A stretch of DNA of 64,000 bases from Phoronis australis (taxonomy: Eukaryota; Animalia; Phoronida). The notes beneath the pieces are model-generated. The model had not been told where the DNA came from and did not search any database. It saw only the letters and a list, made by a program, of their open reading frames with translations. The stretch covers positions 1,145,059-1,209,058 of the forward strand of contig NMRA01000035.1 of assembly GCA_002633005.1 (NCBI GenBank), in the 5' to 3' direction. Positions 3,175 to 45,014 of this stretch are shown here, in pieces (the first letter of the stretch is position 1; each line of letters begins with the position of its first letter). A program made the translations under genes and the position numbers.

Positions 3175-6100
3175 ATGGCATCCCAAAACTGTTTTAAGCC
3201 CCTGCAAAAGCATCCAGGTGATGTTTTGAGTGACAAAGCCCAGTCATGGGGATTGAAAGTTACAGATGTAGAGTTTGCCAAGCGAATGGATAATGAGGAT
3301 ACCTTGAGACACTTGCGACAGGAGTTCTGTTATCCAAAGAATAAGGAATTGCCAAAAGGTAGTTAAAGAACAAAATTCAGATTTTTATGTGTTGAGTGAT
3401 GTGTGACTTACTATGGTTAAGGTAACTGCATACCTTCATTACTGTTTGGCAGTTTCATTAAAAAGTAAGACCAAGTGTGAAATTTGGTCTTGCACTCGCA
3501 CTTCACAATTACTGAATAAAGTTTTAGTCATCTAATTATTAACACTTGAAAACCTATGTACAAATTATCTCGGTAATTATCTGTTTGTTCTAAGAGACTT
3601 TGTACTTTTGCTAAAGTGAGATTTACTTGATTTTCCTGAAGTATTTGCGTATTTAAGCCTGAACTTACTTTTCATGAAACAGACCCCAGGGATCACGTGC
3701 ATTCCTTACAATTTATTTATAAATACTAATTAAAAACCCATTGAAGCATATTTTCAAAATCCTTGGTGACGACAGTTACATACTGTGTGCGTGTAAATAC
3801 CCCGGTTATGCGCACTTGATGTCGTGTGATAGGGTGGTTTTTTTAATTGTTTATTTATTATTATTGTGATATTTAAAATGAGGGTGGCCTCTTCAGTGAC
3901 AGCACTGCTTTCCAAGAGGGTGCTGTTTTTTATGGAGATCGAACGATTTGTGTGAAAACTTCTACCGGTGCAAGTTAAGTTAATTTCATTGAACAATGAT
4001 TAGGTGATAAGATCGTCAAGAATCTTTAAAACACTTGGTTTCTTGGGTTTGTGGCCAGACCAGTATTTAAAAGATTTTCAATTAATGTGACCCTTGTTAA
4101 TGACGGTTTGAAAACCACAGGGAAACCACAGTTAAAGCTGGTATACATGTGGTATTGGAAACATTGGAGGTGGTAAAAGTTTATGTCGTGGAGTAACGAA
4201 ATGTTTTGATTTTAGTGGATACAAGCTTAGTTGACCCTGATGCTGAGTCTGTGTACTTCTGTGGAAACTCGCTAGGCCTGATGCCCAAGATAACCCCACA
4301 GCTGGTGAACAGAGAACTTGATAAGTGGGCGAGAATGTAAGTAAATTTTTAGTTCTTAGTGTATCACGACTCTTCCCTTAAGAAGACGTTTGAAATTTGA
4401 CTGTAAACTATTTCTGATTTCATTTCATGAAACTGTAAAATCATGCATGAGCCTCACAATTTCGAAAGTTCATGTGTTTCTGAACAACAAATGTCTGACT
4501 TTTGAATATAGGATGAAGACAGAAATGATCACTGCGTAAAGATTAGACTCCTATCTTAAAATGCCATTTTGCTTTTTTATGTTGGATGCTCTTTTGCAAT
4601 AACTTCTCAACTTTATTACTTCATGTTCATTTACAAACACTCTAGTTGTCATTTGTTCAAAGCCTTGATTCATTATATCTAAGCACTTCACTACATGGAA
4701 CTCGAAAGTCACTAGGTGTCACAAATGAAGCAAAGGACCTTGCCATAGAAATGCCTCATTCAGGTAACTTTCGTGGGTCCTTGAAACCATGGATAACCAC
4801 TGGCTGACAATCCAGCATTGTGCAAAAGTGTCTTCTACTCCTCTGAGCTCGGTCTTACTAGTGAATGTATGCAAGGGAGTGAATGAGAACCCGGATGTAA
4901 TGCAAAAGCTATTTCTGGGGCTGTGCTCGTTTTTTATTTCAATTTTTAATTAATAGCTGATTTTCAAAATATCCATGTCATATTGAAACTCACTAACCTG
5001 CCAGACGGCAATCAGGTCTTTGGTCTACAAGCATTCTGCATCACCTACAGATCCCATATAATGCGGACGGCAAGTTTTTAACCTATTGATATAAACAGCG
5101 TTTCAACATCTTTCCTGCTATTTTAATGACTGTACTTCGGGAGCAAGTTTTCGATAATACAGAATTTTTTAAATGCACGACACTTTTCATTGTTCACAGT
5201 CTTTATTCCGTTACGTTGGTACTTTCGGAACAAAACATTACTCTCAACTGAACATAGATACAGTAACTGACCTAGCGACATAATTAAAAGACACACGATA
5301 TTTCGAAACATACTTGTTTCATTCTCAAGTGAAGATAAGTACGAACGTAACGGAATAGAGACTGTGAACAATGAAAAGTATCGTGCATTTAACAAATTCT
5401 GCTATTTTAATGAATACATTTCCCACTGCAAAAAAGTGTTTGTCAACAAATCCAGTGGCTCAGGCTGATAAAGTGTGAAAATTTCGATCCCAGCCGGTGT
5501 CAAAAGCTAAAACAAATTAGTGAACTTATCGCACAATAGGAGGCGCTGACAGTGAAATTTATTCCTCTGCTTTTAAATTAATGAACCACTATGTAGTATT
5601 TGGATTTCTGTTCACCAATTCTGTGTCGGGATCAATTAGAAGTAATTATCGTGCTCTTGTTAGGCTCCCGCGCTGTGGAGTGAGTTTCCTGATTTTGCTG
5701 ATCAGAATTCGGGATACAGCCGTGTCGTTATCAGTTTGACAGTGATAGCAAGGGGAGAAAATTGGCAAACCAGTGTTTACATTGTCCAGTGCTATCATTG
5801 TCTGCGTTCATTTGATAAGCTCGCGTAAGTCAGCAATCGTGTTGTAAACAATGTGCCTGATGCTAACCAATATCTAAAAAATACTATTTCCAGTTCAACA
5901 AATGTAGTGAAGAAGATGTGTCTTTTATAATACGCCATCATGAGAAAACTTCGAACGTAGAAAAATTGTTGACTTTCAGAGAAATTAGGCTTAACTTTGA
6001 CCTGCTGATTCCTCTGCGTAACTGTAAGCTCTGTTCCCCTTTACTATCACAGCATTGTGTACCAACACAATAGGCTTGTTTGTCAAGTTTAATAGAACAT

Positions 6101-9100
6101 TTGACCGTGATGCTGGAAATTTCTTTGGTTTTGACAGTCCAGGGTAATGGTATGTAACGTCGTTATTCTAGAGAGCGCCAATATGAAAAGTCTCCTATTG
6201 CTTTCTGCTCTTGAGTTATTCAGATGTCAAAAGAGGGATCTTATTTACTTGCACCACCTAGTGTGAAAATCGAGTTCCCATTACTCAGAAGGCAGTAAGA
6301 AAACTGCCCAAAAGTGACTGTTTTCCTGTGATATTTAGGTATTGCAGGAGTAAATACACATTTAAGGTTTGTAAGTTCACAAGACAATTCAATTTTTGAA
6401 TCTTGGTGTCACGCCTGCTTTTAGAATATTTTTTCTCAAAAATTTTTATAATGGTAATTAAAATATCAACTTGCTCAGATTTTAAAATTAGTTGTGTTTT
6501 CTCCATGTATATCAAAACAACGAAGGATTTAAACCGCCAATGCTCCTTTCAATTACTTTGCTATAATAGACCAAGCAGAAACAACAAAGGAGCTGAAAAT
6601 TCACGAGCCTCTACATATCAGTTGGTGTTAGCCCAGTCTCAATAGGCAACTGCCGCGCTATAGGCTGTCTTCGGTAGTCTAGTCTGTTGCTACTCCCCTG
6701 TAACTGACTGTCTGTGTATCATTACTTGTTGTTGGGCCTAGCAAGGTGGCCACTGCTTTTTTTCTGATGATGGTGTTTTAATAAACGCCGAAAAATGTCA
6801 AGCTGGTTTAAATGTATCGTTGTTTTTATTAATATAGTTGTGTTTTGTGTCTATGGCTGCTGTCAGGATGTTTTTCAAGACAAACAAGGAAACAATGTTC
6901 TGTTTGATTCCTACTCTTTTTTGCTCACTTGCACTTTCATTCCTAACTCTAACTCTGAGGCTTTGTTTCTCTAAAGAGAATGGTGTGTATGACAAGTTCT
7001 CTAACACAATCAAAAATTATACAACTGTTATTAAACCTATCAGCTCATAGGTTGGGATCTGCAAATTTTCAGCTATTTATGTCCACCCCTGTCAGTCTAA
7101 ACCACCAATCTTTTTGGTTTTCTTGGAGAACTTAACATTAATTTCATTTACTCAAGTGCTTGGATGCTAACCGTTTTTTTTCCCAACTAACTAGGGGTGT
7201 GTATGGGCACCGAGAGGAGGTCATGCCATGGGCGTTCTGTGACGAGTGTATTGATTCAGACATGGCAAACTTAGTGGGTGAGTTCAAACTGGCTATTAAT
7301 ACATAGGTAAAGGGAAAACACCCAAGGCACTTCTGTACCTCTCTCGCATGTTCCTACAGTGTATATCGTGCACTGATCCAGAGATGATTGTAAAAAGTTG
7401 CACATTTGTAATGCTAGGCGCTTTCAGTGATTGTGTGCCACAAACTGTCTGCTGAACATACTGAAGCCTCTAGCATAGTATCCAGCTAACAATCTGCGTA
7501 TTATGTATGCCTTCTGAATAAGTCTTGACCGAAATCTTAAACGTGTGTATTTGTGACGTACTTTTTCAGTGGCGTGAATGGTCACTTTATGGGAGAAATG
7601 CCTTGGGCGTTTTGTGATGAGGTTATCGAAGACGACATGGCTTCCATTGTCGGTGAGCTATTGGCTGAGTGTTTTCTTTTAACGATCTTGAGGGTTCAGT
7701 GTCACTTTAAAGCATGCTTTACCCGAGGCTGCATCTTAGTGTCACCTCTGACTCTTATCTGGTGTTTCTGCCCGGTGGATAGGTGTCTGGCATCCGCAGC
7801 TCTATATCCGAAGACCATTGGTGGGTTGTCATGGAATGAGCTCCCACTGTAGCTTAGAAGTTTGTGATACACCATCTGAATATATTTCATCCATTTGTAT
7901 TGCTCTAGTTAAAAATGTCTGTACTGGTTACCTAGAATTTTATGTTTTTTGCACTTCTAAGGACGTCCTTTGTCCATGCCTCCTGTTATCTCTTGTATTG
8001 CCTGAATTTCGAAGTTTTCTGAACAAATCGCACATTGAGCCAAAATTTGAATGATTCTAGAGGCTGTCCAGAATAGTGTGTGGGTTATGGAAATGTATTT
8101 GATGACAAGACATGCATTGTATAAAGTTGTAGATTTTTCTTCTAATCATTTGTTATTAAATGAAATAGACGGTGTTATGCACATTGCACATATTTTCTTT
8201 GTTTTCCTTCATATTGGGTGCTGCTAAATGTATTCTCTGTTTTTCTTTGCCTCATTATCATAACAGATATTGCTAATTAATTGACAGGTGCTAAGCGTGA
8301 AGAGGTTGCTCTGATGAATGGGTTGACAGTAAACCTACATCTTCTGTTAACATCTTTTTATCAACCAACACCTCAGCGACACAAGATTCTTTTGGAGAGC
8401 AAAGCATTCCCGTCTGATCATGTGAGTTATTGTTGCTATTTTGTCTCAACATTTTCCCATTAAGCGCCCTCTGTTGTGTTAGCAAGTAGTGACTGCATTT
8501 TCTATTCAGTACCACTATGCTGAATGACTGATAAAAAGTAACAATGTGTAAATTATTAGTTAACTGGAAACTCCCTGAAAATTTTCTGTTGACGTTGCAG
8601 AGCTGTCTGGCTCCTTTTCAAGAATGATGACATAATTCTGGAAAAATTGCATTCCCTCTGCCAGACAATAACTCCAGGGCTTTGAATCTCGAGGCAGGCT
8701 CCTCTGTGTCTCCAAAGTAATGTTTGTGATTGGTCTCGGTGTTCCAAGTAATTTTTGTATCCTTGATTAGCTGTCGATTTCCTGCGTTTTGTTGACCCAG
8801 ATCTAGAATGGTGTCATATAGACCTTGGTCTTGGTTCATGGTGGGTAATCCACTCATTGAAAAAGACCATTAGATGAGGGTGAAAACATCGAGTCATCAA
8901 TCACAGACAAGTTCGTAGTTAGTGAATTTTTACCTACTCAACATCGTCACGAACTATGAAAAACCTAGTTTATTGCATGCGTGATGTGGTCAACTGCGTG
9001 ATATAAAGTTAACACTTATCACCATTTGTACAGATACTCTATCAGAGGCTGCCCATCATGCACAAATGAGCACAACATGGAAACATAAAATCATTGAAAC

Positions 9101-12100
9101 CACAAAATATGTAATGAAAACCGTCTGCCACTAATTGTGTTACTCTTAGTGATACGTTTGTTGAATACTTTTTTAACGCTGTATTTCACTGTAGTGTTCA
9201 AACCTTGTATTTAAAGAATTGTCCACTTTTCTTTCAGTATGCCTTTGAATCCCAAATTCGTTACCATGGATATGACCCTGCCTCAAGCATGATCTGCATG
9301 GAACCCAGAGAGGTAACATTAGCTGTCCGCTATTGTCTTGCACTGCTTGGAAACAGAATGAAATTGCCAGGGGAGGTGACCCCTGCTTGGCGATTTGCTC
9401 TTGCGATATCGGGGGGGGGGGTCCTTTGCTATTGTGTAGGGGGAACTACAGGTCTGTCCATGGTCAGGCCCCTAGAGACCCTAGTTTTCCATTTCAAAAA
9501 TGTAGAAATCTACTTTAGTAAATGCAAAATACTTTTGTTTTCATCTTGTGCATTTAGCAAATTGTGTTTTACTGTTTTGAAGTAATTAATAACATAAAAA
9601 TTGTATGTGAATTGCCTTACAATTTCCTCTGAGTTGTGCTGCAGCTCCGTTTTGCTGCAGCTCCGTTTTGCCAATACCTGTTGCACGCCATTTTATTTTT
9701 CATAACCGGAAAAGAAACCAGAATGAATGAACAGCTATTTGAGCATGTCTAAACTATTGGTGATTGATTTGTGGCCAGAATTCTCAAATTCAGTAGATTA
9801 TATTCTGGTAATTAAAACCAAAAATTTTAGTAGAGTTATGTTATCTGCCACTAAACTATGTTTCTTCCATTAGAAATCTGTAATTCTGTGAATTCCTTCC
9901 ATTTTCTGTGATCGCGGAAAAAAACTCAGGGTCGTTAGACACTGCTCTGCTCATGATCCTGTATTTGCGCCTGTATAGCATTATATTGTGATTCAGTAAA
10001 TATGTTACACCTGCATATTTCATAGTTATTACTGGAGTGTTGTATTGTACTACAATGTTTGTGACTTAAATGCGACGCCAGTATTATTTATTGTATTCTT
10101 TTTAATATCACAAACGTGGGACAATTATAGTATGAACTGGCATCTGGTGCTAAATCTACTGCCAATCTGAGAAACTATCAGTTAAGCTTATTAAGTGTAA
10201 ATGGAACGTTGTCTTAAACACAACATGTCTTAAACGTTATAGCTAAGAGACAAAGATATATGCTTGATCACCTCTTGCCTGCTCGTGTAAGGTGGTGCTG
10301 CTGTCTTCCGTTTCATTTCTCACGTATTTGCGACTTTTGAGATTTTTTGCACGAACTAATCGCTGAGGTCTCAGATAGCATGCCCTAGAAAATGTTTGCC
10401 TGACTGCCATTTCAGGGCGAGTTCACATTACGCACAGAGGACATTCTGGCCAAAATTGAGGAGGAGGGTGACTCTATTGCCGTGGTTTGCTTCAGCGGTG
10501 TACAGTACTACACAGGGCAAATGTTTGACATGCCAGCTATTACTGTGGCGGGGCAGAAAAAGGTAGAATAAATTTTTCATTTTTCTTAGAATTTGAAGGG
10601 GAAAGCAACCATTTTTGATGTTCTCTTTAATAAAAACGCTTGTCCTTGGTATCCATGTAGAGACATTGTTCTGTGTTAATTACCATTTGCTTTCCATTGA
10701 AGAGTAGGAAGTGATGTCATTGGCCCAACAAAGGGCCAGCATTTTCTGTGTGCATTCATGTCCTGCACTGTATTGAACGCATTTTGTGGAGGTCATACGT
10801 GTTTGCTCAATGAGAGTAAATGCAGAACCAGGTTAAAAATTGACATATTACCCACCCATGACATTCACCTTGCATGTAAAACAGTCATGGAAAACCATAA
10901 GTCTTTCTTTTAGACTCTGAAGTATTTCTTTCAATAAATGGAAAAGTAAAAAAGCCAAGGCTTGCTTTTAAAATGTCCCATCAAAGTAGTTGCGCTAGTT
11001 GTGAGCCCTGCTGGGCCCTAGTTTGTTCTCTGAATCAGACTCGAAATTATAATTGTCTATGATTCTGTGGTCGAGTACATTATGTTTTATGTGGTTTACT
11101 GTCTAATTCTAGTTTGGACTTTATGTTCCCCGCTGTGGGGTCAGCTGCATTACATTTGCCTCTAACAAAGAGCTGGAGTTTGTCAGCAGTAATGTGCAGT
11201 CCAGATAACTAAAATGACTAATCTTCTATTTGTTGTGGTCCTTAACATATTTCCTGTTTTTGTTGATTTGTTCTCAGGGTTGCTATGTTGGATTTGACCT
11301 TGCCCATGCTGTAGGCAATGTTGAGCTGTATTTACACGACTGGAACGTAGACTTTGCCTGTTGGTGTACGTACAAGGTAAGTGAAGCTGCTGTCATCCTA
11401 CATTCTATTGACGATGTTCGTTTTGTGCCAAATAAGTAGTAGAAACCCCAGCACAATTGTCGTTAACATTCTGTACACATACGAGTCCAACGTTTTGACG
11501 AAGTTCAGTTCATCATTCTCAAGGAGTTCATCAAAACCCAACAACAGGGTTATAAGTAACAAAATCAACTGAACCAACACTCACTTGTAAAGCAGTCGCC
11601 TTCAAAGGTCAAAGCTATCCCCAAAGGGTGAGCTCAGCTGACCCCAGGTTGCCTTTCATTGAAGCCCTAGGGTTTAGATCAACAATGGCAAGGCTCTCTT
11701 TAATAGCCAATCTGAATCTATTTACATCATTGTGAAGAATTGTAGGATTAGCACAATCTATTACATGACCTGTTACCATAGAATGAATACAGAGGGCACT
11801 GTTGTCACTTTTCGAATGTTCTTTTGCTCTTTGACCTAATCTAGTTGTCATACCAACATAAAACTCACCACACTGGCAGTTAAATCTGTGTACAACATTA
11901 GTCCTCTGCAAGCGTTCTGCATTTTGTGCCTGAACCTGCTATCCCGGCATCTTACGGATGTTGCAGGATGAGTATACGCAACTGGGTACATACCCAGTCA
12001 GCAGCCCAGTGGGCATCACTTAACTCCTGCAGAGAAACCAAGGAGAATTTTCCCAACGTAATCTAACCAAAAGGTTCAAAAAGCCTTCTGAGTCTAGAGA

Positions 12101-15100
12101 GATTGGGTATGAGACACGTCATTCAAATTTTGACGGGCCACTGCAACCTAGCCCGACACAGACACATTACTGGGCATATGGGGAGCCCTGTGTGTCCCGA
12201 GTGTGGTACTGACGTAGAATCTCCTAAACACCTGGTAGAGTCTTGCCCAGCTTTTTATAGGCTAAGGAGCAACCTACTGGATGGCATTGTTACATGCCTA
12301 CAACATATAGTGCATGGCAACAAATGGAAACGTCTGTCCGTTTTCCTAAAGGAGACTGGCAGACTTGAAAACTTTCTTCACGAGGAGCCATAATTGGGGT
12401 CTCGTGCCTTTGCTCAGGTGTTTTGTGCAATGGGCCCAACCATGAGGCCTGCGCACGTCTGATGCACCGCAAATGACATCAGACCACCTGCACTGTTTTT
12501 TTTTTGNATTAATAACCTACAAGATGACTGTACCTACATTCTGTCAAAATTAATTTTTAATTTAGATCATTTAACTTAAAACTGTTCTCAGCTTATCCCT
12601 TACTAAGATTAGAAGTTATGTTTGGTCTTGATGAGAACTGATAATTTGAGACTAGGTTTATTAAGTAAGCCTGAACTGTCGAGCCATTTTATGCATTGAG
12701 TGTGATCTCGAGTACAGCAGGGTGTAACCTAGGAACTCACACACGGCTCAGAATCAGACTTGAAACTTGACCAGTTCTGCAGCGTGATTCGTGTACAAAT
12801 TTTCAAGTTTACTCGAAGGGTGTTATGTACAGTGATTCGACTCCGGACCCAGAAGTTGCTTCTGGTCTGAGTAATCAACAATTTGAGACCATTTTTGTAA
12901 CAGTTACCTATATAAATTGTAAGTTATTCATTGACATGAGGCGAGTGTCTTGCACCTGTATAATATAAACATTGCAGGACCTTGTAACAACTGTCACAAA
13001 ATGCAACTCATGTGTAATTATTTCCGAAACTGAGTTGCAAATGTTTTAAAATCTCTATGTTTCCATTGATGAAGACTGAAGAGATACGTATGTTTTAACC
13101 AAGAACTATTTTTCAGTATTTAAGTTCTGGAGCGGGAGGTATTGCAGGCTTCTACATGCACGAGAGATATGCCGTCAATGACTTCCCTAAACTGCTGGGC
13201 TGGTGGGGTCATGACATCAAGACACGTTTTGTAATGGACAATGGTAAGTATACTGCGTACCCACAGAGGAGACTGTATGGTTCAGTAGTTGTCCCATTTG
13301 GGAGTCCCGGGTTCAAGTTTGTGGCTTTACTGGCTGACAATTTAGCATTGCACAAATGTGTCTTCTACTCCTATCAGCTCGGGCTTACACTAGTGAGTGT
13401 GTTCAAGGGAGTGAATGAGAACCTAGATATAATGCAAATGCAGTTTATAGGGGTGTGCTAAATAAAAAAAGGTATATTTTTTCAGATCTGGTATAGTCTA
13501 AGAAGCAGCATTTAGTCAATTTCACTTCAAGAGTCCTGAAATCGGTACCGTCACACACAANAATGAGACCTGTTTAGACAGATTTTTATGTAGATCATGC
13601 ATGGTTTTTCTTGCAGAAATTCATGCACATTTAATTTTAGTTTCAAGGTAGTTAGATTCCATGCATACGTTTTCAACAAGCAAATTTCATGTTTGTGTTT
13701 TGTTCTAGCACACAAGCATGTTCCATCTATTCTTGTCATTGTAGGCTAAAGCTCACCGGTGAATACCACTTGGAATTTTGTTCCTACACAGATATTCATA
13801 AAAGTCTGACATGAATGCGTCCAATCTTTACTGACCTCATTTGAAGTTTGGCATGATGTTACTTCTGGTTTGTGTGAGTGTAACTGCATGTTCCATTTTG
13901 CAGCTATTTTGTTTTTTCAGTTATGGTATTGTCACCTGGTCCGCGTGGATATCGTATCTCCAACCCACCCCCGTTACTGTGTGCGCCACTAGAGGGCACC
14001 TTTCAGGTTAGGGTTTCAAATTTCTAGCTTGTTTTTAGTTTAGCACTTTGTTTCAGTTTCAAATTTGAAACTGCTAACGGCTTACTTACCATAACCATGC
14101 TTCAACTAGGAAACAAATCAAATGTTGGTGTTCAGAAATGGACTATGATAATCGCATTTTTTGAATTTTGCTTTATTTTGGATAAAAGTGACTTCACTTT
14201 GTTACTCGTTTTTATTTTAAGCAATTGGAAATACAGTATGGGCCGAAATTATGAGATAGTTATTCTGAATTTCTTGCGGAATTAACCGGTAGAGTTGCTG
14301 AAACGACGTGTCATTATCCAAACTTTTCCTGATTATTTTTGGCTGTTGTGTTGTTGCCAGAAGTTCGAGTCTTCTCCCGCTTTCTTAGCATTTCAATCTT
14401 TCCAACTACATTATGGAGAGCCTCACTTTCTGTGTTTTGAGGGGCGGTCTGGCCATGTCTAGTAGGCGTAAGTCAAGCAAGATTGCCTCAGTTAAGATTT
14501 ATCCCCAAACGCAATGGTTCTAAAAGGAAAATGGCGAACACGAGTTGTTGAATTCAATTTCCTTTCCCTTTAGTTTTCCTCTTTGTCTCCCTTTTCTTCC
14601 CATTTACTGTACATGCATGCCTGCCTGTAGTTTCCATTGTCTCTTTAATATACTCACCTGACAAAAAGCTGTGTATTCTCGAATGCTTGTGATTGTATTT
14701 TTGCATCTGTACTTGATACTGGATAAGTCATTCAGACATAGACCCTATGTCAATGTCAGTATGCTGTGCGGAAATGCAGTGGACTAATACGAAATGTGTT
14801 GTATTTTACATCAGGTGTTCAAGAAGACCACCATGTCATCTCTCCGTCAGAAGTCCCTTCTACTAACGGGATACTTAGAGCTCCTTCTGAAGATTTTGTA
14901 TAGTAAGCCTGATGACCCCAGCAGTACAAAGCCATACGTGACTATGATAACACCGTGTAACCCTGTGGAAAGGGGATGCATGCTGTCTTTGATGTTTTCT
15001 GTGAATATTAAACACGTCTTTGAAGAGTTACAGAAGCGAGGTGTCTCGGTATGTTAAACTGATCTTAAGGTCATTTAGCACCTTATCAACAACAAGTCTG

Positions 15101-17640
15101 TGTTTAGCCAAATATCAACAAAACGGTAGATTTTAAGGCAGAAAAAGTATAACGTTTTCTGAAATTAGAAAGGCTTTAGAGTTTTATTTTTAATTTTATC
15201 TCCCATCAAACGGGTCATGTGACCATATCTTTTTCAGTAAAATTTAGCAAAAGGGAAAGGTACATTTTTTTCTACTTTTACCCTTCACACTCGAAGCCGA
15301 GTATTCCGAAGTGGTTCTCATTCATTCCTCACTATGGAGACCGAGCTCAGAGGAGTAGGAAACACTTTTGTGCAATACTCGATTGTCTGTCAGTTAAACC
15401 AGGATTCAAACCACAGTCTCCCAAGTGGGAGTCCAGAGCTCACACCACTGAGCCCCACTGTCTCCTCCTAAGCAAAACAATGGTGACAATACCACGACCA
15501 AATTTTGTTTGATATAAATGATCAAGATGAATTCTCAGTTTTCTAATGTATCGTTTCTTTTTTCATTTTTTGCAGCTTTTGATTATTTTCAGAAAAATTC
15601 ATGAAAGTTCTATTTTTGATAAATTTTCATTCAAAAATGAAACATTTTAAAAACAATTTGCAACATCATGTTGGATAGTAGCGCGTAAAGTATAGTAACT
15701 GAATAGCCATTTTTCTGAGATACGATGTTCCGAAGTTTGGCAAATTTTTTCTGTGGTCCTACAAAACCTTAAATGTACTGCACGTGATTAGAGTGTGCAA
15801 ACCGACTTAATCCATTGAAATGAAAACTGAAGCATCACATTCAATATTAAGGTAACTATGCTCAAATGCCTCAGAGTACTTTTGTTTGAACTTAGCGAAG
15901 ATGTCTCGTCACTGTCTTAAAGATGTATTGCATGCTCTTAACTATGCAGGAACTAAACGACATTGCTGTTTGAACACCAACTACGCTAAACAAAGTGCAG
16001 TTGTGTTCATTGACAACTTGTAAATGTGAAAGCTGAAACTTATGCAAATACGTGAACTTTGCGCTAATGACGTACCGTGGGGGCTCACATAGCTCGCATC
16101 ATGCAGTGTTATTCCCCAACACCATGTCACGATACTTACTGGACATGGTTGAGTGATTTACGGCAGATCGTTTTCAACACAATTCATTCTTGAAAACATT
16201 TGGCAATTTTCAACCTAATTCATATCCACACTGTCGCTATATGTTGCGTTTTTAACTAATTTGACCAAGTGATCACAGAGACTAGGAATTAGAGTGCAAG
16301 TTCCACTTTAAAGCCTTCAACGGCAACACATGTAAATTTTGTTCGTACAGTATGTTAAGAGCATCGCTCTGAACCCACTTGTGCCATAAATTGCCAAATG
16401 TAACAAACTGTTAGGCGTACTGGCTTGCTTTTGTCTACGTCACTGCGAGAATCACCTTTTAAATTAAATCATACAGCTGCAAATAACACCAGCATGCAAT
16501 GGTGTTCTTTTCAGACCCCTATTCAATACAAACTTTTGTTGTTTGTGCTGGGATTTTGCGGTGACGCAACATGGCACGAAAAGGCAACTTCACTTATGAT
16601 TTGACGGGCTTACACTTGTGTGATTGAACTCGCGTTTTCTTATTTTACTAAGGCTGTGCTAGGACAAAATTACGTTGAAGTTAGGCTTTAAGTGCTGTTG
16701 AAGGTTGGACTTTTATAATTGTCTGGGAACAGTGTTTATGGAACTCGACTTGATCAATATTATGACATACTGAGAGCAAACTTACAAATTAATAATCGAA
16801 TTATGTGGCATGATTGGTTAAATTACGTAACACCATCTGTGATTGTCAGAAATTAGCTCCAGCACATAGTCGAACATACAACCTTCGCTCTCGCAGTCAA
16901 ACGCTCTGCCAACTGAGCTAAACCATACTTGATAAATGACACAGCAAGTGTTCTTTAAAACTGGTACAGTCACTGACCTTGATTTCAGCGAATGTCTAAC
17001 AAGAATGAAAATTCAGGTGATTTGAAATAAAATCACAAAACTCCCTGAATTTATTGTTTTGTAGCTCTGGTCAAAGGTAATAACTTCAGAAAGTCTCCCA
17101 TCCATCAATGATCCCAAATATGCATTTTTGGCTGCAGAAATAATGACATCCCTTTAAATTTTGAGTCCAAGTGCGAGTCAAGTGTGAGTATGGAGATTAG
17201 ATCTTGGGCCCTCGTTCTGAACTTGAGCTTTTACTGGTGTTCAAGAGGACATGCGTTAACATCAAGCCTAGTCTGGGTTTGAGTGCTAGATACTCGCTTT
17301 GGTCCTTTATCTTCTAGCGCAGTGTAGGTAATTTTATTTGCTAGTGCCTCAGTGAAAAATCGAGACCTGCTGCATTTTATAGGGTGTAGAGATAAAAAAA
17401 AATCATGTGCGGTTTTGTATCTTCACCTGTTGAGGTCTAACCACAGTTCAATATTCAATTTTGTTTTTTTTGTGTGATTCATGGCTTTTTATTTCTAATG
17501 ACTTCTTTTTATTTCAGTGTGACGAGCGTCTTCCCAGTGTGATTCGCGTTGCCCCTGTTCACATCTACAACTCCTTTGAAGACGTTCACCGCTTCGTAAC
17601 ATTCGTGGGGGAATCCCTGCTGGCAGCTGCTGCTTTATGA
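3175..17640 (+). CDS. KYNU: Kynureninase (PLP-dependent L-kynurenine hydrolase), 11 coding exons per isoform, 470 aa
   Basis: Exons 3175-3358, 4216-4336, [7195-7277 or 7570-7652], 8288-8421, 9238-9312, 10416-10562, 11278-11376, 13117-13243, 13921-14006, 14815-15048 and 17518-17640. All introns are GT-AG and phase-consistent, totalling 1413 nt. Motifs: [44 protein letters not shown] (PLP lysine), GWWGH, RISNPP, IRVAPV. Confidence 0.97.
4760..4928 (+). mobile_element. SINE family copy (body only)
   Basis: Shares GGCTGACAAT...GTGTCTTCTACTCCT...GAGTGAATGAGAACC with 13266-13460 and, in reverse, with 15285-15470. Confidence 0.6.
5114..5413. mobile_element. Foldback/MITE-like element
   Basis: A ~40-bp imperfect inverted repeat (5161-5201 vs 5359-5400) is bracketed by the direct repeat CTGCTATTTTAATGA (5114-5128 and 5399-5413). 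Confidence 0.6.
6400..6810 (+). mobile_element. Decayed Penelope-like element 3' end
   Basis: The ORF remnant ...[19 protein letters not shown] resembles the end of Penelope GIY-YIG domains. A hammerhead-like motif follows ~200 bp later. Confidence 0.45.
6750..6807 (+). ncRNA. Minimal type I hammerhead ribozyme-like motif (degenerate)
   Basis: CTGATGA-T-[GGTGTTT taat AAACGCC]-GAAA-AATGTC-AAGC. It has both core boxes, a 7-bp stem II, a GUC triplet and GCTT/AAGC stem I potential. GAAAC appears mutated to GAAAA. Confidence 0.6.
7195..7277 (+). CDS. KYNU: Kynureninase alternative exon 3a (83 nt)
   Basis: TAG|G acceptor and G|GTGAGT donor; encodes (M)[27 protein letters not shown](G). Confidence 0.88.
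7570..7652 (+). CDS. KYNU: Kynureninase alternative exon 3b (83 nt)
   Basis: CAG|T acceptor and G|GTGAGC donor; encodes (I)[27 protein letters not shown](G). Confidence 0.88.
11440..11930 (-). mobile_element. Penelope-like retroelement fragment (GIY-YIG endonuclease and 3' region)
   Basis: ORF 11615-11911 reads [28 protein letters not shown]...SALCIH...KESLAI, a typical Penelope GIY-YIG domain. A degenerate hammerhead-like motif lies at 11482-11526. Confidence 0.85.
12030..12510 (+). mobile_element. Non-LTR retrotransposon 3' fragment (C-terminal Cys/His motif, I/Loa/R1-like)
   Basis: [13 protein letters not shown]...[21 protein letters not shown]...FLKETGRL matches the C-terminal zinc-binding region of LINE ORF2. 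Confidence 0.8.
13266..13460 (+). mobile_element. tRNA-derived SINE copy
   Basis: Head AGGAGACTGTATGGTTCAGTAG...GGGTTCAAG with A/B-box-like sequences; body shared with 4760-4928. Confidence 0.6.
15285..15470 (-). mobile_element. tRNA-derived SINE copy
   Basis: The reverse complement has GGGGCTCAGTGG (A box) and GGTTTGAATCC (B box), followed by the same body as the other two copies. Confidence 0.65.
16308..16691. mobile_element. TTAA-flanked non-autonomous DNA transposon (Kolobok/piggyBac-type)
   Basis: Imperfect TIRs TTAAAGCCTTCAACG ... CGTTGAAGTTAGGCTTTAA, with TTAA at both ends. Confidence 0.5.
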
Positions 17641-24885: not shown

Positions 24886-26750
24886 ATGGCGTCAACGTCC
24901 GCACAACTTGCCTTGATGTTCCATCAGGATGGGGCAATGTTCAAGATCTACGGCCACTTTAGGTGTCTCGCTCTGACACTTTTACCATCACCACGGTAAT
25001 GAATTTCTTGTTGATTTGATGTACCAAAAACTATGACTTAATTTGTTGTTGCTAAAATGGTAGATCTAATATGCATGGGGATATTTGATATAGTAAAGTG
25101 AATAAAAAGGAATAAATTTTATTTACAAACAACATGTAAAATTTAATTCCTTTGTTTTTCAGACGACCAAACATCATGCCAGCGGAAATAAACAGTAATT
25201 CGACAACTCTTCCAGAAGGTGATGGAAATCCAGTCCATAGCCATGGCCAGCACTTCTGGAACAGTATTGACCCAGTCAGCGACGCTATCACCAGCGGAGT
25301 GTACCAACCGACGGACTCAGAGGACGAGACGTACGACCCAACGAAATCCGCCTACGACTGCCAGGATTCCTGCTTCACGTACGACGCGACATTGTTCCAC
25401 CATAGAAGTTCCTTGTTTCCAATCTCACCGTATGTACCCAATGAAGGTGACGAGATGACTGCCTGGTGGGGCCCTCCAGTTGACTTTGACACCCACTCTT
25501 CCACGAGTGCGACATCATGCAGTTCTGATGACGACGAGAGTTCTTATGAGGAGAGCGACAGCGAGGGGTTTGCAGACGATGAAATGAGTGACAGCGACTT
25601 TGCAGACGACGGCTTTGTGAGTGAAAGAATCGCTTATGATGACGATAATTACGACTGTTTGCAGCAAACTGGTGGGATCTGTTCGACAGTTGATCAAGAG
25701 TGCTACCATCCTTGCGACGAGTGTGAGTCGGCTGTTGGAGATGATACAAGCAACGTCCCATTGATTGTCATTTCCACTGACAGTATCGATACATGCTCTG
25801 GAGGCGACGACTGTGTTATCACTGCAACACAACACGGAACTAGGGGCAAGGGGGGTGAACACGATGTAGACGTGGAGCCCAGCTACGGCCCACTCCTCTC
25901 AGCGGCCATGGATAGCACTGGCGACGACTGCGTGATTTTAGGATTTGATCAGACTCGCCGAGGCACGAAAAGGGGGAGGTTTGAAAGAGACGATCATCCA
26001 GAAGTTGTGGACGAGATTGAGACGATGGAGGGAAGATGCAGCAGCGCAGTTATCTTGGTATCATCAGACAGCAGCGGCGAACTGGCATGTAGCGACGAAG
26101 TTGATGACGACATTAGCACTAAATGGAGGATGACTGATAAAGGTGTCGGCAATGTAGACGTCGATGATGAAATTAGCTACAGTCCATTTCCCGGTCTATC
26201 CGTTGATAGCAGCGATGTTACGTCTGCTGGCGACGATGAAGAGGATGGTAGCGCTGACCAAGCTGGCCCTGGAAAGAGGAGGAGGGATTTAAGCGACAAC
26301 GACGAAGACGAGACTAATGCAGCCAAGAGACCGCGCCACGATGACCAGACCTCTTCCCCAACTGAAAGCGTTCAGTCGAGGTCCACTCCACAGCTTGATT
26401 CAACACCGTCAGCAGACATCGATATGGCAACCACGACGTCATTGGATGCGTCTTCGAGACAAGGCCAAACATCTCTCGTGAATCTTCCAGTATCGCCTCA
26501 TCGCAACTCATCGGCGACAGGAGACGTGGATGAGGTTTCACGGGTGAATTCGCCGCTGTTGCCTTCTTACGAGTCCATGTTTTCTTCCGACGAGTCTTCA
26601 CCTTCTCGTCCGTCATCACCAGAACCCAAGGCTTTTGCTCTTAGTGACATCACGCATATCATGAACAACGTCCCTACAAGCCGCCGTGATGAATTTGTGT
26701 GGAAGAAGCGATTCCCACAGCTACCGTACCCATACTGGCCTTATTTCTAG
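24886..26750 (+). CDS. Uncharacterised acidic, intrinsically disordered, probably nuclear protein (524 aa from ATG 25176, possibly extended by exon 24886-24995)
   Basis: A 1.6-kb stop-free, GC-richer frame in AT-rich DNA. Acceptor TTTTTCAG|A at 25162; the phase-compatible upstream exon 24886-24995 ends CG|GTAATG; TATAAAA at ~24707. The protein is rich in Asp, Ser and Glu and has a bipartite-NLS-like KRRR...KRPR. Confidence 0.7.
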
Positions 26751-36533: not shown

Positions 36534-36990
36534 AGTTTGCTGCTAGATACGGCGTGCGTTTGTATCATTGGTTGATCATTAGAGACTACGCTAGTGGAAA
36601 GCGGATTTTGCTAGCGTTTTAGGCGCTACTCATCAGAGCCAAGCCATAAATTATCATATACTCTTCCGCTTCATTTCAGTTATAAACTTCATTAAAACGA
36701 ATTGATTTTAGTGCAAATTAGTACAACTAGTACTATCAAAGGGAACACCAAATGAAACGCATTCGATTCTTCAGTTTAATTTTTAACGTCTGGCATATTG
36801 AGTGACAGCTGATTCATGCGTTATGTGTACTCACTCAACTGCTGTCATAAGTGAGAACAATTGAACAGGCGGATGAACATTTCGTGAGAATATACTTACT
36901 GTGTATGCCTTCAAAATGTATGTTTGCACATTGTAATCGCTTTAACTTTCAAGTGCTTTGTTAAGTTACGCTATAAAATCAACTTCATAG

Positions 36991-39900
36991 GCTCGGCAGC
37001 GTCGTCGCCTCCGACGCGGTGTTCTAAAGCAGACGTCGTTTTCATATTGAACAGTTCGCAATGCGTAGGCGCAGCCAACTTCGACCTCTCCAAGAGTTTT
37101 ATTGCTGACGTCATCAACAGCTTTACGTTTGGTGTACATGGCATTCAAGTAGGACTGATACTTGTCAACGGTGATGCGCATTTACAGTCCTATTTGAATG
37201 CGTACAGCAAGAAAAACGACATTGTGTCCGCGGTAAGGAGGATCCCTTACGACGGAGGAACGACAGCAACACACGCTGCGATCGAAATGATGAGAGAACA
37301 TGTGTATCGTCCTCATAATGGTGACCGACCAAACGTACCAAACATCGCCATCGTAGTCACGGATGGAATTTCAAATTCCCCTTTAGAAACAATAGATGAA
37401 GCTGGAAAAGTGAGGTCGTTGAATATTGTACCATACATCATAGCCGTAGGAATAGGCTTTAGCAACCGACCGTGGGAACTGGAAAAAGTGGCCAATAAAC
37501 CAACAGCTGAATGGGTATTCATGGCGAAGACGTTCAGTGATTTGGCGGGAATAAAGGACAGGGTTGCTCAACGGGTCATGAAAGGTACAATGTCATGTTC
37601 TAATTACAACCTAGAAAATACCTGTACTAACTCAACATGGATTTCCCATTATAATTAAAATTAGAGAAATTAATTTACAAGCACTTATCTATTGTATGAA
37701 GTACATATTTCTGTTTTTTGCCGTCGGTGTGTGTGCGGCGCGTGCGTGTGTGAATTTGAATAATGTCTACGAGTTCGTTAAAGCCGTTATGAACCCTCCT
37801 TTTGTATGCCGGCGTGGTGATTTGAGGAGCATGCTCGAGATCAAGAAGAATAATTTTGGTTACAACGATGGCCATTTTAGCCGGTGATTATAGGCTCAAC
37901 CAATAACGAGCACAGAAATCATTTCCAACACGAGCTAGGAACACGTTGAGACCAGTTCATAACATAACATGATCTGAATCAAAGGTTAATGTATTCTTTA
38001 CTTGTATGTGAGGATCATATATAGTTTGTCAGCCGAACAGCAGATTGTTGACCGAGGAAAGTCACTTGGCGGCTGTTGCAATCGTAATTTAGAGGGAGGG
38101 GAGGGAGAGGGTGAGGGGGATGGGGNNNNNNNNNNNNNNNNNNNNNNNNNNNNNNNNNNNNNNNNNNNNATTGCCCATCGCCTTACTCTGATGCTCTCAA
38201 TCTTACAGTGATGAATGTAGATCAACAGCATTATTCCGTTTGCATCACGAATATTGTCCTGTGCAGATAAACCTGGAAGCGCTTAAACATGACCACTATT
38301 GCCAAACAGTCCTTTTTGTGAATTACCGCGGCCCGGTGGCTTTCCGTTTTCGGTTGGTATACGCAACAGGGAACATTCCATAGTAAAATGCCTGCAACAA
38401 GACAGTCGTGAAACAATCATCGGATATTTTTGTACTGACGATGAACGTAAAACAACCACGGTTTTGTTTCTGTGCTTAAGGAAATACCTCTCCCTAACAT
38501 AGTTGTCCTTGTCCACGTACAAAATTATATGATGAAAGAAGTTAACAAGACTAATCTTATTGGCCGCCGCCATCATTGTGTGACAGATCGTAGCGACACC
38601 TAGCGGTTGTGTGCTCCGACGAAGTACGGGAGACGATATTTGTTTTCCTCGGAGCACGCGCGTGCTACATATAGCCACCGTCCTTGAAACAAGGTTTGCT
38701 ATAAGCGGTCCAATGGTATTGCACTAGGAGATTTGTCTCTCTCTACGGTCTCTGGCATGATCAAGAGAAACTCTGGGTACGTCACAATGAAATGTTTGTT
38801 TAAAAATAAGCACATCAACACTGAAGTCGCTGTTCGTGCAACATTTTGTGATTTTTAGAGCTTTTTCGCAATGGTGGTTTTGGGAAGAAATGGAATGAAA
38901 TGAGGAACTGTTGCAGACAATATTTATTGGAAGAAATGAATTGCATTGATAGCCTTTAAGGAAGGACAAAGAATTTTTACATGTACATGAATTTTATTTC
39001 AGTTGCCCAGAAGAACGGTGAAGCATGTGCAACAAAAACAACATCTGCAACATCCACCCTGCCTCCAGCAATACTGGAACTCACAACAAAAACAAGAAAA
39101 ATACCACCAAAACCAACACCGAAAACAAGCACAAATGGCAAGTCAAAATAATGTAGCCTGAGATCTCCAGAGAATTCAGAAAACGATTATGCCGCGCAAC
39201 GCCTCCGATCCGCAAACTACAAGATTCCAGAAACTGTATGTCGGAGATTTCATAACACGGAACTTCGAGTTGTTAGTTGGAGTTCATTTCGTGAAAGTTT
39301 TTTGGCCTCAGCGTAGATTCAAATCAGATTTATGACCAATCTGTCATAATAGGCCTACATCATGAAATTTCCTTGACTCAGCTAAGACCGAAAATGAGCT
39401 TGCTACTGGGTAGGTTTAAGACCGGATTTTTGTCTAAATGACAAAACTTGTGACTGCCATAACTGTAAATTGTCGTAAAATTTTCCGTTTTTCTAAATCT
39501 AATGGCTCCAAACAATGTCGAATTGAATATTCCCTCCTTTCAGTTCGGGAGGTGGCAAAACACAGTAGCGCCATTCACAAATATATTGGGACGCTTTTGT
39601 AAATCTCAGTTAATGTTTTCCAGCGCAACCACTATATTCTCAAATGATAAGAGATTACAATTGAAATTATGGCTCCCCAATGTTGTACTACGCAAATGCC
39701 TACTTAAAGATGCCTCGCATCGTGTAACTATGCAAGACTTGGCAAGATTTCATCACAGCGTCGTTAGAGCAGTCTGTATCGCCTTGAACAACTTTCAGGC
39801 GGGAATAAAAATGGACGGAACGGACGTGTGAATTGAAATACCCTTAAGCCGTGAAACAACTACGGATGCAATATTGAATGCTATCGGCTAATTTCAGGTT

Positions 39901-42900
39901 TTATTTTTGTATAGGTATTACTCCACCAACACCAAAGTGTGAAGCAGCGGGTGATTTGGTTTTTTGTTCTCGACACCTCGTCTAGCGTCACCAAACTTGA
40001 CTTCAAGTTGGCAAAGAGCTTTATGAAAAGCCTCGTCGGAGCTTTCTTCATACACCCCAGGAAAGTCCTGATTGGACTAATTCTATATGGAACGCACGTC
40101 AGAACTGAAATACCCTTAGGCAGTGAAAAAAACCATGGATTCAATATTGCAAGCCATTGGTAGTATCTCACGCATTGGGGGCTCGACAAACACCGGGGGG
40201 CGCATTAAAGGTCTTGCAGGAAACAGTTTTTACAAAACGTGGAGGCGACAGGGAAGAGGCTCCCAATGTTGCGATTGTTATGACTGATGGCTTGTCAGAT
40301 GACCCGTTTTTTACAAAACAAGAAGCGAAATTCGTCCGNNNNNNNNNNNNNNNNNNNNNNNNNNNNNNNNNNNNNNNNNNNNNNNNNNNNNNNNNNNNNN
40401 NNNNNNNNNNNNNNNNNNNNNNNNNNNNNNNNNNNNNNNNNNNNNNNNNNNNNNNNNNNNNNNNNNNNNNNNNNNNNNNNNNNNNNNNNNNNNNNNNNNN
40501 NNNNNNNNNNNNNNNNNNNNNNNNNNNNNNNNNNNNNNNNNNNNNNNNNNNNNNNNNNNNNNNNNNNNNNNNNNNNNNNNNNNNNNNNNNNNNNNNNNGC
40601 CACAGCACCGTCAGGGCAGAAGTTGTACATTGACAATCATTATTTGAGTAATGTAAATGTAAATAAAGATTCCCCTAACACCTGGCCGTGGGATGGAAAT
40701 CGAGTTGTTTCACAACAGTTTCTGCCAGCCGCGTGAAACACTAAATTAGCATGAGCTCACACGGCCACGGTGTCCCGTCAATTACTGAGTTTTATTGCAC
40801 CTAAAGCCGGTAAGCAGTGATTTATTCATTGCTGGCTTCTCAAATCATTTGCACTCACGAACACTCCAAAGGCATTACAAATTGCATCTAATGAGACAGA
40901 CTTTGTTTCAGTTTTAAATAAGTATTGGTTAGGGTGAGAATAATTCATTTTGAAACAGAACGCTCAGTAATAAACGCCAACATGGCATGGGCAACTCGCA
41001 ATCCCGACTTAGGACGAGCTAGAGCTCACCAGTCCCGACTTCGCAGGTGGTTCGTTAAGTTTTACAGGTCATCAATTCGAACAGGAATACGGTGATTAAG
41101 AAATACTAGAGAGGCTTCGTGAACAAGCTCAGACAACGGAACGCATGGAGTTATTTGGCCGGTAAGCCGGCATTCCGTCAGGCACTGTCGACGTCTGCAG
41201 GCCACAGACACGGAGATGTTTCACGGCCTCATACTTGCTATTTACAGCGTACATTTCATTCTTCACTACCATGAGCCACTTCCTAAGCATTTCGGACTCT
41301 CGAGGAAGTAGAAAAAACGATATACCCGCTTTCTTCTCAGCTGCTTAGTTCGGACAAGCGGGAACGATGCACCGCAACATAGCGGCGTTCACTCTGCGTA
41401 TGAACCACTGACGTCGCTAGCGTCGTTTTTCACCTTCCTCACAGGTTAACGCGACACCTCTTGGCAAGGTAAGGTCGACCGTATGCGAGGCGATGTGAAT
41501 ATAGACCGATTAAGACGACAAAAAGACTAATTAAATCGGGTGGCATTCTCCTTTAACATCAGACAAATTGTGACGTCAATGATAGAACAAGCTAGCACAA
41601 CACCACGTGTATAAAGATATATCGCCAATCGATCGGTGGGTGATCAAGTTGAATCTTGCTTGATCATTACCAAACCCTCCATTATTTTCAACACACATAG
41701 TCGTCGCCGTAACTAGGAGTCGACTGTGTCGCCGTATCGCCAAGGGGGGTGGCGGCGGATTTGGAGGCAAAATTATCAACAGATGTCAAGTTTCATTGAA
41801 AACCGCCATTGCGTGAAACAAGGATATATCAGGAAAATGACCATCCTATTACAGAATCAGCGTTCAATAAAGCTTTAAAGATTGTCGCAAAGTACATCTA
41901 TTCGACGTTAAATCTTTTGAGATGCGTGGGTTGGCGCGGTGTGCACATGCGATGATTTTTTACTCGAATTAAGTCAAATAACGTGATGTTATGTTACAGA
42001 AGGTCAAGCAAGTGACGACACTAAGACGAGTTAACTGCGTCAACGAAACTTGGGTAAGACCTCTCAGCCGGCTGAACAAGCTGAACCGGTGGAGTAAATG
42101 AAGGATAGCCATTGAAGAAAAGAGTTACGTGTGCACTTTTCGCTCGCGGATGATTAAGGGCCAAGGCAGATAGAGACCTGCAAGCTGAGCTGGCCGCCTC
42201 GTTTGTGCGAAAACTGAGCTGACAGTTTACGCCAAGGTATGAAGATAAGACAGCAATTGAATAAATCAAGCTGCTACTTCATTCAGTTGACGTGAGCTGA
42301 CAGTTCAACTTTTGAAGTTTTGAGGCATCCAGCTAAACTCATAGCCTTCCATCGGCGCTGATTCTCAAGGGGAAAATCCTACATTATCTATCGTTTCAGT
42401 TGTTTTACAAAACAAACCAACCACGGCGACATTAGGAACCACGAGAGAAACCATCAGGCCGTGGAGCCCATGGTTAACATCCGCAACAGCAGGAGCATTA
42501 AAAACAGCAACGACAACAACTACTACAGCCATAACATCAACAGCAACAGGAACAACAACATCAATCACACCAATAGCAGTATCTGGGGCGACCTCTAGCG
42601 CAACTGAGTTCACTGCGGAATTCACGACTACTACAGATGCAGGTAGACCACACTATGCTATGGAAAAAGTGCTCGCTTCATCTAGTTTTGTGCCAATTTA
42701 AAAAAAGGATTTGTAACAATAAGATGAGTGATCCTTAGTTCAGCAAAACTCACAGTTCGTTTTTGGTTGAGNTTGACGTGAGCTGACAGTTCAACTTTTG
42801 AAGTTTTGAGGCATCCAGCTAAACTCATAGCCTTCCATCGGCGCTGATTCTCAGGGGAAAATCCTACATTATCTATCGTTTCAGTTGTTTTACAAAACAA

Positions 42901-45014
42901 ACCAACCACGGCGACATTAGGAACCACGAGAAAAACCATCAGGCCGTGGAGCCAATGGTTAACATCCGCAACAGCAGGAGCATTAAAAACAGCAACGACA
43001 ACAACTACTACAGCCATAACATCAACAGCAACAGGAACAACAACATCAATCACACCAATAGCAGTATTTGGGGCGACCTCTAGCGCAACTGAGTTCACTG
43101 CGGAATTCACGACTACTACAGATGCAGGTAGACCACACTATGCTATGGAAAAAGTGCTGGTTTCATCTAGTTTTGTGCCAATTTACAAAAAGGATTTGTA
43201 ACAATAAGATGAGTGAGGCTTAGTTCAGCAAAAGTGACAGTTCGTTTTTGGTTGAGATCAGGTTATAAAAATTAATTTCTTGCGGCCTGTCAAGCATGGT
43301 ATCGTACAATAACGAACTGACAGTTCTTTGTAAGACTAAGAACGTCTGACCGGAGTAAAGAATAAGTCAAGACCAATATGAAAGCGGTAAGAAGTTTGCC
43401 GCAAAATTCCGTTTCCTAGGCAGGACGCAGGTTTAATGCCGCTTTGATTTGTATACGATTAGTTGGCGAAATAAGGGAAACTATCAAAGAAAATGATTCT
43501 GCTTTTGTGAAAATCAAAGAAATGTGCTTGGACATGGCATCACAAAATGTTGGCAAAAATGTTCAAAGAATTAAATTACCAGAAATAGTTCGACTGGGAT
43601 CAAATTTTGTCTTCCTGATTCCAGGAATCTCACATTTTTTGCAGTGCGTAGAAGTTACGAGAAATTGTCAGATTTGGTTCTGTTCGTAGAGAATATTTCA
43701 ATGAGTGTTTTTACATCAAACGCGACCTGGGCTGAAGCTCCAGCGCACAAACCTAGGATTTTCAACAATGTCAGAGGACATTTAACAAAACTATTTCCAT
43801 GGTTCTGACAGTTGCAAGTGTGTTCGCAAGAGATGTAGTAGCTGAAGGACAAGTGCGCCGCCTGTCGTGAAGGCTTTGAGAGAATCAGCTATGCAGAGTC
43901 TAATAAAACACTCATCGTTTTTGTGCAATTTATTCAATCGTGGCACTTGGCCTCACGCCTTGCGTCATTCCCAGAAGCAATGGGATTCCTTGGGTCTTTT
44001 TCATGAAAAAAGATTCGAAACTTCAAACAGAAATTTTGTCTTAGCTTCGCCTTCACATTTGCTGAATAGAGGTTTAGCCAAGTAATACGAGCGCATCCCA
44101 GTCTTGCAATATTTTACAAATATTATCTCAGTAACTAGCAATTAGGAAAATGTTCTCAGATACTTTGGATTTTTGCTAAAGTGAGGTTTAAGCATATTTC
44201 AAATAGTTATGTGGAACGTAAAACCAAATATCTGACTTAACTCTTAAGTCATTTTTCATGAAACAGATCTCTGGAATACATAAAAACAAACCATTAGGTC
44301 TCAGTAATACGATTTTTAACATTCATATTTCAGAGTGTGACATTGCAAGGACTCGCTGTGTTCTGCATTGTCTGTCAAAACAAAACAGAAAATGTTCAGC
44401 TTCATTTCTTGCTTGCATTTTATTTAACAGGTGATGGACGTTCCAAAACACAGAATGCAAGAATTACGAACGTTGTCTTCGTCCTGGATGCGTCGGACAG
44501 CTTGAGTATTGAAAATTTCGAGTCAACGAAAAATTTTGTCAAAAACGTCATTAAAAAGTTGCTCGTCACCAGATACATATTTCGAGTTGGCTTCGTAGCA
44601 TTCGGAGGAGACGTTAAAACAATAATTCCCATAGGCGCCTACTCAACGGCTGATGCGTTGATCGAAACAGTTGACAAGATACGCTACATAGGGGGTGCTA
44701 CAAATACCGCAGAGGCGCTAAAAGCCTTGCGGAAGGACGTCTTTGCCAATGGAGATAGGTGGGAAACTTTCAACGTTGCGATCATTCTAACAAGTGGGAT
44801 TTCCAAATACACCGATTTGACGAGACTCGAAGCCATCGCAACTCGTAAAAACTCTCTTATCTTAGCAATAGTCATAGGACATAACGCGTCAGTAGCCGAG
44901 CTTATCAACCTTGTAGGATTTCCACCGAGGAATCGAATTTTTCACGCAAAAGATTTCAGCGAACTATCAACCCTTGAAAACAGATTAGTCAACCGCCTTA
45001 TTCAAAGTGCTTGA
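36991..45014 (+). CDS. Multi-VWA-domain extracellular-matrix-type protein (matrilin/collagen VI-like VWA x3 with Thr/Pro-rich linkers); 5' exon not identified, partly in an assembly gap
   Basis: Phase-1 exons: 36991-37584 (VWA1: CSKADVVFILNSS...AIVVTDG), 39003-39137 (T/K/P linker, GC donor), 39915->40338 (VWA2: DLVFVLDTSSSV...IVMTDG, three homopolymer frameshifts, runs into Ns), 42400-42642 (Thr-rich, duplicated at 42885-43127) and 44431-45014 (VWA3: VVFVLDASDSL, ends TGA). AATAAA at ~45373. Confidence 0.82.
42288..43256. repeat. ~485-bp near-identical tandem duplication split by a single N (probable haplotype/contig-overlap artefact)
   Basis: 42288-42771 and 42773-43256 differ by only a few substitutions; the N at 42772 is exactly at the junction. 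Confidence 0.85.

Follow-up and report, generated by a model that had tools for sequence, protein, structure and literature searches.

Two tandem exons for the His102 loop of a Phoronis australis kynureninase: alternative splicing, coding selection and a candidate intronic switch

Kynureninase stands where the routes to anthranilate and to 3-hydroxyanthranilate part, the latter being a precursor of NAD and, presumably, of rhodoquinone in worms and molluscs. In the stretch of Phoronis australis DNA analysed here (64,000 nucleotides, hereafter the window), its gene carries two neighbouring exons for one and the same active-site segment. This raises the question of whether one gene makes two enzymes and, if so, whether these differ in their choice of substrate. 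A preliminary description of the locus had held that the exons are mutually exclusive and that such splicing was undescribed for this enzyme; indeed, no account of mutually exclusive kynureninase splicing was found in the PMC and bioRxiv literature, a body that leaves most subscription journals outside. Two natural enzymes that differ in nothing but this loop would constitute a test of the preference for kynurenine or 3-hydroxykynurenine with His102 and Asn333 untouched, a matter also pursued in the design of therapeutic kynurenine-degrading enzymes.

The window contains a single complete kynureninase gene (3175..17640, + strand) of 11 exons, with GT/AG introns and an open frame of 470 amino acids. 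The coding exons, all on the + strand, are 3175-3358, 4216-4336, one of the two alternatives (A or B), 8288-8421, 9238-9312, 10416-10562, 11278-11376, 13117-13243, 13921-14006, 14815-15048 and 17518-17640, and the introns from the gene start to the 8421>9238 joint are supported by RNA reads. The protein is 60-67% identical to named lophotrochozoan kynureninases, and a close homologue matches PDB 3e9k with an E value of 1.5e-167. In a quick maximum-likelihood tree of both isoforms and 45 homologues hand-picked from 123, the enzyme falls with the lophotrochozoans but not within the mollusc clade (SH-aLRT 94); a coral source, considered at first, was discarded because coral kynureninases cluster at a great distance from it. 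Searches for close relatives with the window exons (four matches in one search; 86-89% at best, over one short exon) or with proteins (about 65% identity at best over the full length) returned none, and tblastn found no second copy of any other kynureninase exon in the 64-kb window. In seven genomic ORF fragments (P0214, P0225, P0227, P0233, P0301, P0314 and P0339) the homology ends exactly before residue 98, breakpoints which suggest that the intron preceding the loop exon would be ancient.

The two alternatives, exon A (7195..7277, +) and exon B (7570..7652, +), were found exactly as first described: each has 83 nt, AG and GT ends, phase 2 on entry and phase 1 on exit, with a spacer of 292 nt between them and the translations originally given. 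Either one alone restores the 470-residue frame. When B follows A, a premature stop is reached at codon 132 (GTG GCG TGA, the TGA at 7575-7577), no more than 8 nt into B (7570..7577, +), and when both are skipped a stop arises at codon 104, right after the joint; these predictions also stood. The A- and B-isoforms differ at 11 residues, ten of them within the exon and one in the split codon, which reads Met with A and Ile with B. At the nucleotide level 54 of the 83 positions are identical, while 17 of the 27 whole codons specify the same residue and 8 of those 17 do so by a different synonymous codon.

Such a pattern bears on the earlier claim that selection has acted on both exons, which is borne out. 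The Nei-Gojobori proportions of differences are 0.766 at synonymous (pS) and 0.247 at non-synonymous sites (pN; Fisher p 0.0003), as an average over the time since duplication, and the differences fall 7, 7 and 14 on the first, second and third codon positions; by this comparison of sequences, synonymous sites are saturated and the protein is conserved. Furthermore, when random decay was simulated, none of 20,000 runs in any of four settings kept an open frame whose score, on a profile built from 108 distinct and mostly animal homologous segments, was as good as that of the real exon. The excess of pS over pN and these simulations together argue that both copies are old and that coding selection has acted on them through most of that time. 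On the same profile B scores 68.4 and A 63.5, B thus being nearer the family consensus; it has no stop or indel in its coding frame and retains His102, Gly105, the Pro-Trp pair and the Cys-Asp-Glu triplet.

Transcription was followed in three runs of stranded raw reads (X1, X2 and X3), all from a single study, about 18-19% of each being read, with a joint listed from three reads at two starts upwards. The upstream constitutive exon e2 (4216..4336, +, with a phase-2 donor) is joined to A by 35 reads (10, 8 and 17 in X1, X2 and X3) and to B by none, and the downstream constitutive exon e4 (8288..8421, +) receives 14 reads from A (7, 2 and 5) and 10 from B (3, 4 and 3), so that B accounts for 10 of the 24 joints into e4; for comparison, e4 is joined to e5 by 11, 4 and 10 reads. 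The junction count proposed in the preliminary description thus confirms that both exons are spliced, and the reads show all four of their splice sites in use. No joint of e2 with B or with e4 rose above threshold in the three runs, and a fourth run, available as contigs, contained nothing on either exon. The acceptor of B was seen in use only in the A>B joint, supported by five reads with five different starts, all in X3 (0, 0 and 5). A finer mapping at 88% likeness gives the bin holding the first 19 nt of B a depth of 0.08, 0 and 2.04, equivalent to 0.2, 0 and 5.3 reads spanning the acceptor; this depth is fully explained by the five A>B reads, and hence no e2>B read is present. The corresponding 95% upper bounds for e2>B, somewhat optimistic in that mates were possibly counted twice, are 8% of the splices from e2 and 45% of those into the B acceptor.

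A is, then, the productive default in the sampled runs, and the exclusion is leaky. Mutual exclusion holds at the level of the protein, being imposed by the frameshift, and fails at the level of the RNA, where five reads join A to B. Of the proposal that one gene makes two enzymes, the part concerning a productive A-only mRNA stands, whereas for the B enzyme the runs offer 0 e2>B reads against 35 e2>A and its existence is our inference.

Two further observations on the reads deserve mention. X1 and X2 together hold seven B>e4 reads and none across the B acceptor (7570-7588), a combination with a chance of about 0.01-0.03 at equal rates, and perhaps a structure-related library bias lies behind the missing reads. 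Moreover, the 3' end of intron 2 (7050-7194) has a sense-strand depth of 3-4 in X3 and 1-2 in X1, with none in the A-B and B-e4 introns; removal of intron 2 may come late, or the intron may be retained.

These joints would also be expected if B acted mainly as a poison cassette which, spliced after A, shifts the frame of the mRNA and lowers kynureninase, its coding conservation being a legacy kept in part by pairing with an intronic element described below. The sole upstream partner seen for B is A, the stop lies only 8 nt into B, its share of the e4 joints is high for a mere leak, and the A>B share varies between runs. Nevertheless, a poison cassette needs no correct phase, open frame or near-consensus residues, and B has all three in spite of saturated synonymous sites; in addition, an isoform with only the B-type segment is annotated in the snail Gigantopelta aegis, and the reads are few and come from one study. 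We hold this explanation to be a serious rival, if a rather unlikely one; were it true, a duplicated coding exon would have been turned into a regulator.

Another possibility is that B is a recently abandoned relic, spliced by leakage and with no present role. Productive B mRNA was not seen in the three runs, and the splice signals of B look slightly weaker: judged from its sequence, the acceptor of A (7167..7194, +), with a CTAAC at 7167 that we take to be branch-point-like by consensus, a T run and the AG, appears the stronger of the two. However, B is frequently included in all three runs, is free of lesions and has a complementary element that is not random, which makes a relic very improbable.

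The explanation that we favour is that these are old duplicate exons for the His102 loop, both spliced, with A as the default, and that an enzyme containing B alone is likely made in tissues or conditions outside those sampled, its preference between kynurenine and 3-hydroxykynurenine being predicted to differ. We give this full reading a little less than even odds (a probability of roughly 0.45); that both enzymes are made somewhere, whatever their preference, we regard as probable. The leaky A+B mRNA would in this case be cleared by nonsense-mediated decay.

What could the swap change? Alignment confirms that the segment corresponds to human residues 98-124 including His102, as had been proposed. 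His102 (His107 in the enzyme's own numbering) is present in both exons, and Ser332-Asn333 (its own Ser337-Asn338) lies in a constitutive exon. Ser332 is presumably part of the 3-hydroxykynurenine specificity motif. The known His102/Ser332/Asn333 determinant is thus unchanged between isoforms, and it follows that any switch must work through the loop residues 100 and 103-106. A and B differ at human positions 100, 103-106, 115, 117, 118, 122 and 123; the loop reads His102-Arg103-Glu104-Glu105 in A and His102-Phe103-Met104-Gly105 in B.

This loop has been explored in engineered human kynureninases, where it is reported to move on binding and to hold about a third of the changes of the evolved enzymes (PMC11329768). 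The same account gives His102 with Asn333 as the 3-hydroxykynurenine-type motif, which it terms exclusive to animal enzymes. It also describes that the triple change E103F-V104H-G105T by itself raises the kcat/Km of the human enzyme on kynurenine about 17-fold, and that E103F, present in both evolved high-kynurenine enzymes, makes a hydrophobic contact to the substrate ring (PMC11329768). Residues Y100-S115 are reported to be protected during catalysis (PMC9191678). The likeness to the variants HsKYNase_8, _93D9 and _66 is that their loop 102-112 carries activity changes and that E103F gives the residue found in exon B and in one Gigantopelta isoform (PMC11329768; PDB 3e9k, 2hzp, 7s3v). They differ in being laboratory variants in a human background, with Phe103 alone in common, since B keeps Gly105.

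In natural enzymes Phe103 occurs in 76 of 80 bacterial-type loci, including each of the 20 whose residue 102 is Trp or Phe; these loci are the best 80 of 577 from a metagenome scan, intronless and picked by animal-derived patterns. The presence of Phe103 in both the evolved human and the bacterial-type enzymes leads us to predict that B would be the more kynurenine-competent form, with the direction of the shift uncertain. Of the 108 distinct homologous segments 102 have Gly105, where A has Glu105 instead, and G105T forms part of the activating triple, so that A could turn out to be the more kynurenine-active form. Across the same 108 segments position 103 is Phe in 21 and Arg in 5, and animal enzymes with a single such exon, for example those of frogs, a shark and echinoderms, commonly have Phe103.

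Should Phe103 in B act as predicted, it would shift the enzyme to kynurenine and its output to anthranilate, a direction that is the least certain step of the proposed mechanism, while A would remain a 3-hydroxykynurenine enzyme supplying 3-hydroxyanthranilate for NAD and possibly rhodoquinone. Against a shift of this kind it may be argued that both isoforms are made with about equal preference, the swap tuning stability, turnover, inhibition or dimer behaviour, or being nearly neutral. Both exons keep His102 with Asn333, positions 100, 103, 104 and 106 are highly variable among animals, and specificity is described as set by a network of epistatic changes (PMC11329768). Yet changes at 103-105 alone suffice for the 17-fold effect in the human enzyme (PMC11329768), and the Arg/Phe contrast recurs in a second lineage, for which reasons we regard equal preference as unlikely.

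Outside this locus His102 itself has been replaced in nature (P0024, P0043, P0044, P0002 and P0052), by Tyr where scallops and Gigantopelta have a second kynureninase gene, and by Arg in the enzyme of a sponge and in a gastropod-like sequence; judging by the residue exchanged, such paralogues may have altered specificity. In turn, the combination of His102-Phe103 with Ser332-Asn333 is found in 53 of the 80 bacterial-type loci (L001-L080, the best 80 of 577, chosen with animal-derived patterns).

The second lineage is that of the snail. Two Gigantopelta aegis isoforms, X1 (XP_041361627.1) and X2 (XP_041361628.1), each of 465 amino acids, show 12 differences, all in residues 96-121, and differ at none of the 378 compared sites outside the segment, the swapped span being that of exons A and B. 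RefSeq isoforms are usually backed by RNA. X1 carries Arg103 and Cys115, as in A, and X2 carries Phe103, Ser122 and Ile123, as in B, whereas sites 104 and 106 go the opposite way. A random pair would show Arg and Phe at 103 with a chance of about 0.018, on the frequencies of 5 and 21 in 108 and for a position noticed post hoc. The likeness to the Phoronis pair therefore extends to the same family, the same swapped segment and the Arg103/Phe103 contrast, together with Cys115 in X1 and Ser122-Ile123 in X2; the difference is that the snail pair is known from automatic RefSeq models alone. In the annotation of Gigantopelta another gene, too, has a segment resembling that of X2 (21 of 27 residues identical).

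Of 30 protein clusters, that of Gigantopelta X1 and X2 is the one showing an isoform pair confined to the exon, counted among the members listed, which for the four big clusters are 15 each of 28, 18, 57 and 34, in a comparison to which unannotated second exons are invisible. No protein with two copies of the segment occurs among 360 proteins or in the enlarged set. One further candidate, P0052/P0367, was rejected as an isoform pair, since its eight differences inside the segment are accompanied by 34 in 387 sites outside. In a tree of the 27 segment columns, A groups with Gigantopelta X1, apart from B; nevertheless, AU tests reject no grouping (p 0.18, 0.47, 0.33 and 0.30), and a shared and an independent origin both fit.

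How would one exon be chosen over the other? Steric exclusion is out as the mechanism, since the intron has 292 nt and A is joined to B in the RNA. An AG close to where A ends might have allowed re-splicing, an idea also discarded for lack of a pyrimidine tract and of any supporting read. A candidate signal of a different kind lies between the exons, where the intron that separates A from B opens with 70 nt that read as an inexact antisense version of the exon, found post hoc and in one sequence. This antisense mirror (7279..7346, +) is predicted to fold on A (7211-7273) with 50 bp and -46.6 kcal/mol, enclosing the donor of A, and its core (7315..7334, +) is Watson-Crick complementary to B (7594-7613) at 18 of 20 positions. 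The A hairpin is more stable than any of 150 intron shuffles (z -3.7) and the strongest among 11 donors (next e9, z -2.4); against shuffles of the whole sequence, 4 of 200 are as stable (z -2.25). The pairing of the core with B is matched by 1 of 2000 shuffles, by none of 216 other 292-nt windows and by none of 23 other exon/flank pairs. Thus one element is complementary to two competing sites beyond chance. A possible third partner (7666..7683, +), just 3' of the B donor and pairing with 7307-7324 of the element, is weak: 39 of 2000 shuffles reach it, and it too was noticed post hoc.

The composition of the element is also informative. Its core agrees with B at all four positions where A and B differ, and its flanks match A-specific codons, a mixture that makes a relic of the inversion of one exon hard to argue. 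Moreover, the natural codons pair with it better than synonymous recodings do, in 996 of 1000 cases for B and 954 of 1000 for A. This element, able to pair with A or with B according to the folding model and new here, is a candidate splice switch. When paired with A it would hide A and its donor, so that B is used; when paired with B it would hide B, so that A is used. Against such a simple scheme, the energy minimum prefers the A hairpin by about 10 kcal/mol and so predicts skipping of A, opposite to the RNA, and forcing the element-B helix does not open the A donor (unpaired 0.45 vs 0.43).

Competing RNA structures are known to govern exon choice in Dscam, 14-3-3zeta, Mhc, srp and ATE1, and FGFR2 IIIb/IIIc is given as a case of exclusion assisted by nonsense-mediated decay (PMC6071210). 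As in those systems, one element faces two rival partners, and an exon of non-triplet length makes double inclusion a target of that decay; unlike them, where docking and selector sites loop exons out in the systems described, the predicted partners here are the exon bodies themselves (PMC6071210). An intronic mirror pairing with exons would be a compact and testable splicing mechanism.

The closest known system is coq-2, in which the mutually exclusive exons 6a and 6e act as a rhodoquinone switch, described also for annelids and molluscs (PMC7434440; also PMC8659336) and for Alvinella (PMC12403961). There too, tandem homologous internal exons remodel a substrate site, and the pathway is the same: 3-hydroxyanthranilate is the presumed substrate of COQ-2e, and rhodoquinone is reported to be missing from kynu-1 mutants (PMC7434440). 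The enzyme, however, is another, kynureninase standing one step upstream, and both coq-2 isoforms and their functions were established by RNA and mutants (PMC7434440), whereas for kynureninase the second isoform and the difference in function are inferred. The link of the exon pair to rhodoquinone and the coq-2 switch would thus be drawn by analogy; if it were true, the pathway under coq-2 control would have another switch that works by splicing. In its broadest form the idea would be that of an ancient lophotrochozoan switch common to Phoronis and vent snails, in which an Arg103 specialist for 3-hydroxykynurenine alternates with a Phe103 generalist competent for kynurenine, a change at which directed evolution of the human enzyme arrived as well, the intronic mirror decides between them and, alongside coq-2, tryptophan is routed to NAD, rhodoquinone or anthranilate at low oxygen. 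As a whole, this we consider decidedly doubtful.

Elsewhere in the window, on the + strand, an open frame of 536 codons (25140-26750), acidic, rich in Ser and Asp and of low complexity, is probably one large exon. Three exons (36888-37658, 40127-40340 and 44298-45014) resemble by eye von Willebrand A domains of a collagen VI or matrilin-like protein, with a gap of Ns in the second. Finally, two open frames at 45577-47033 resemble, again by eye, a broken 3'-terminal portion of a non-LTR retrotransposon, with a reverse transcriptase tail and an RNase H-like portion.
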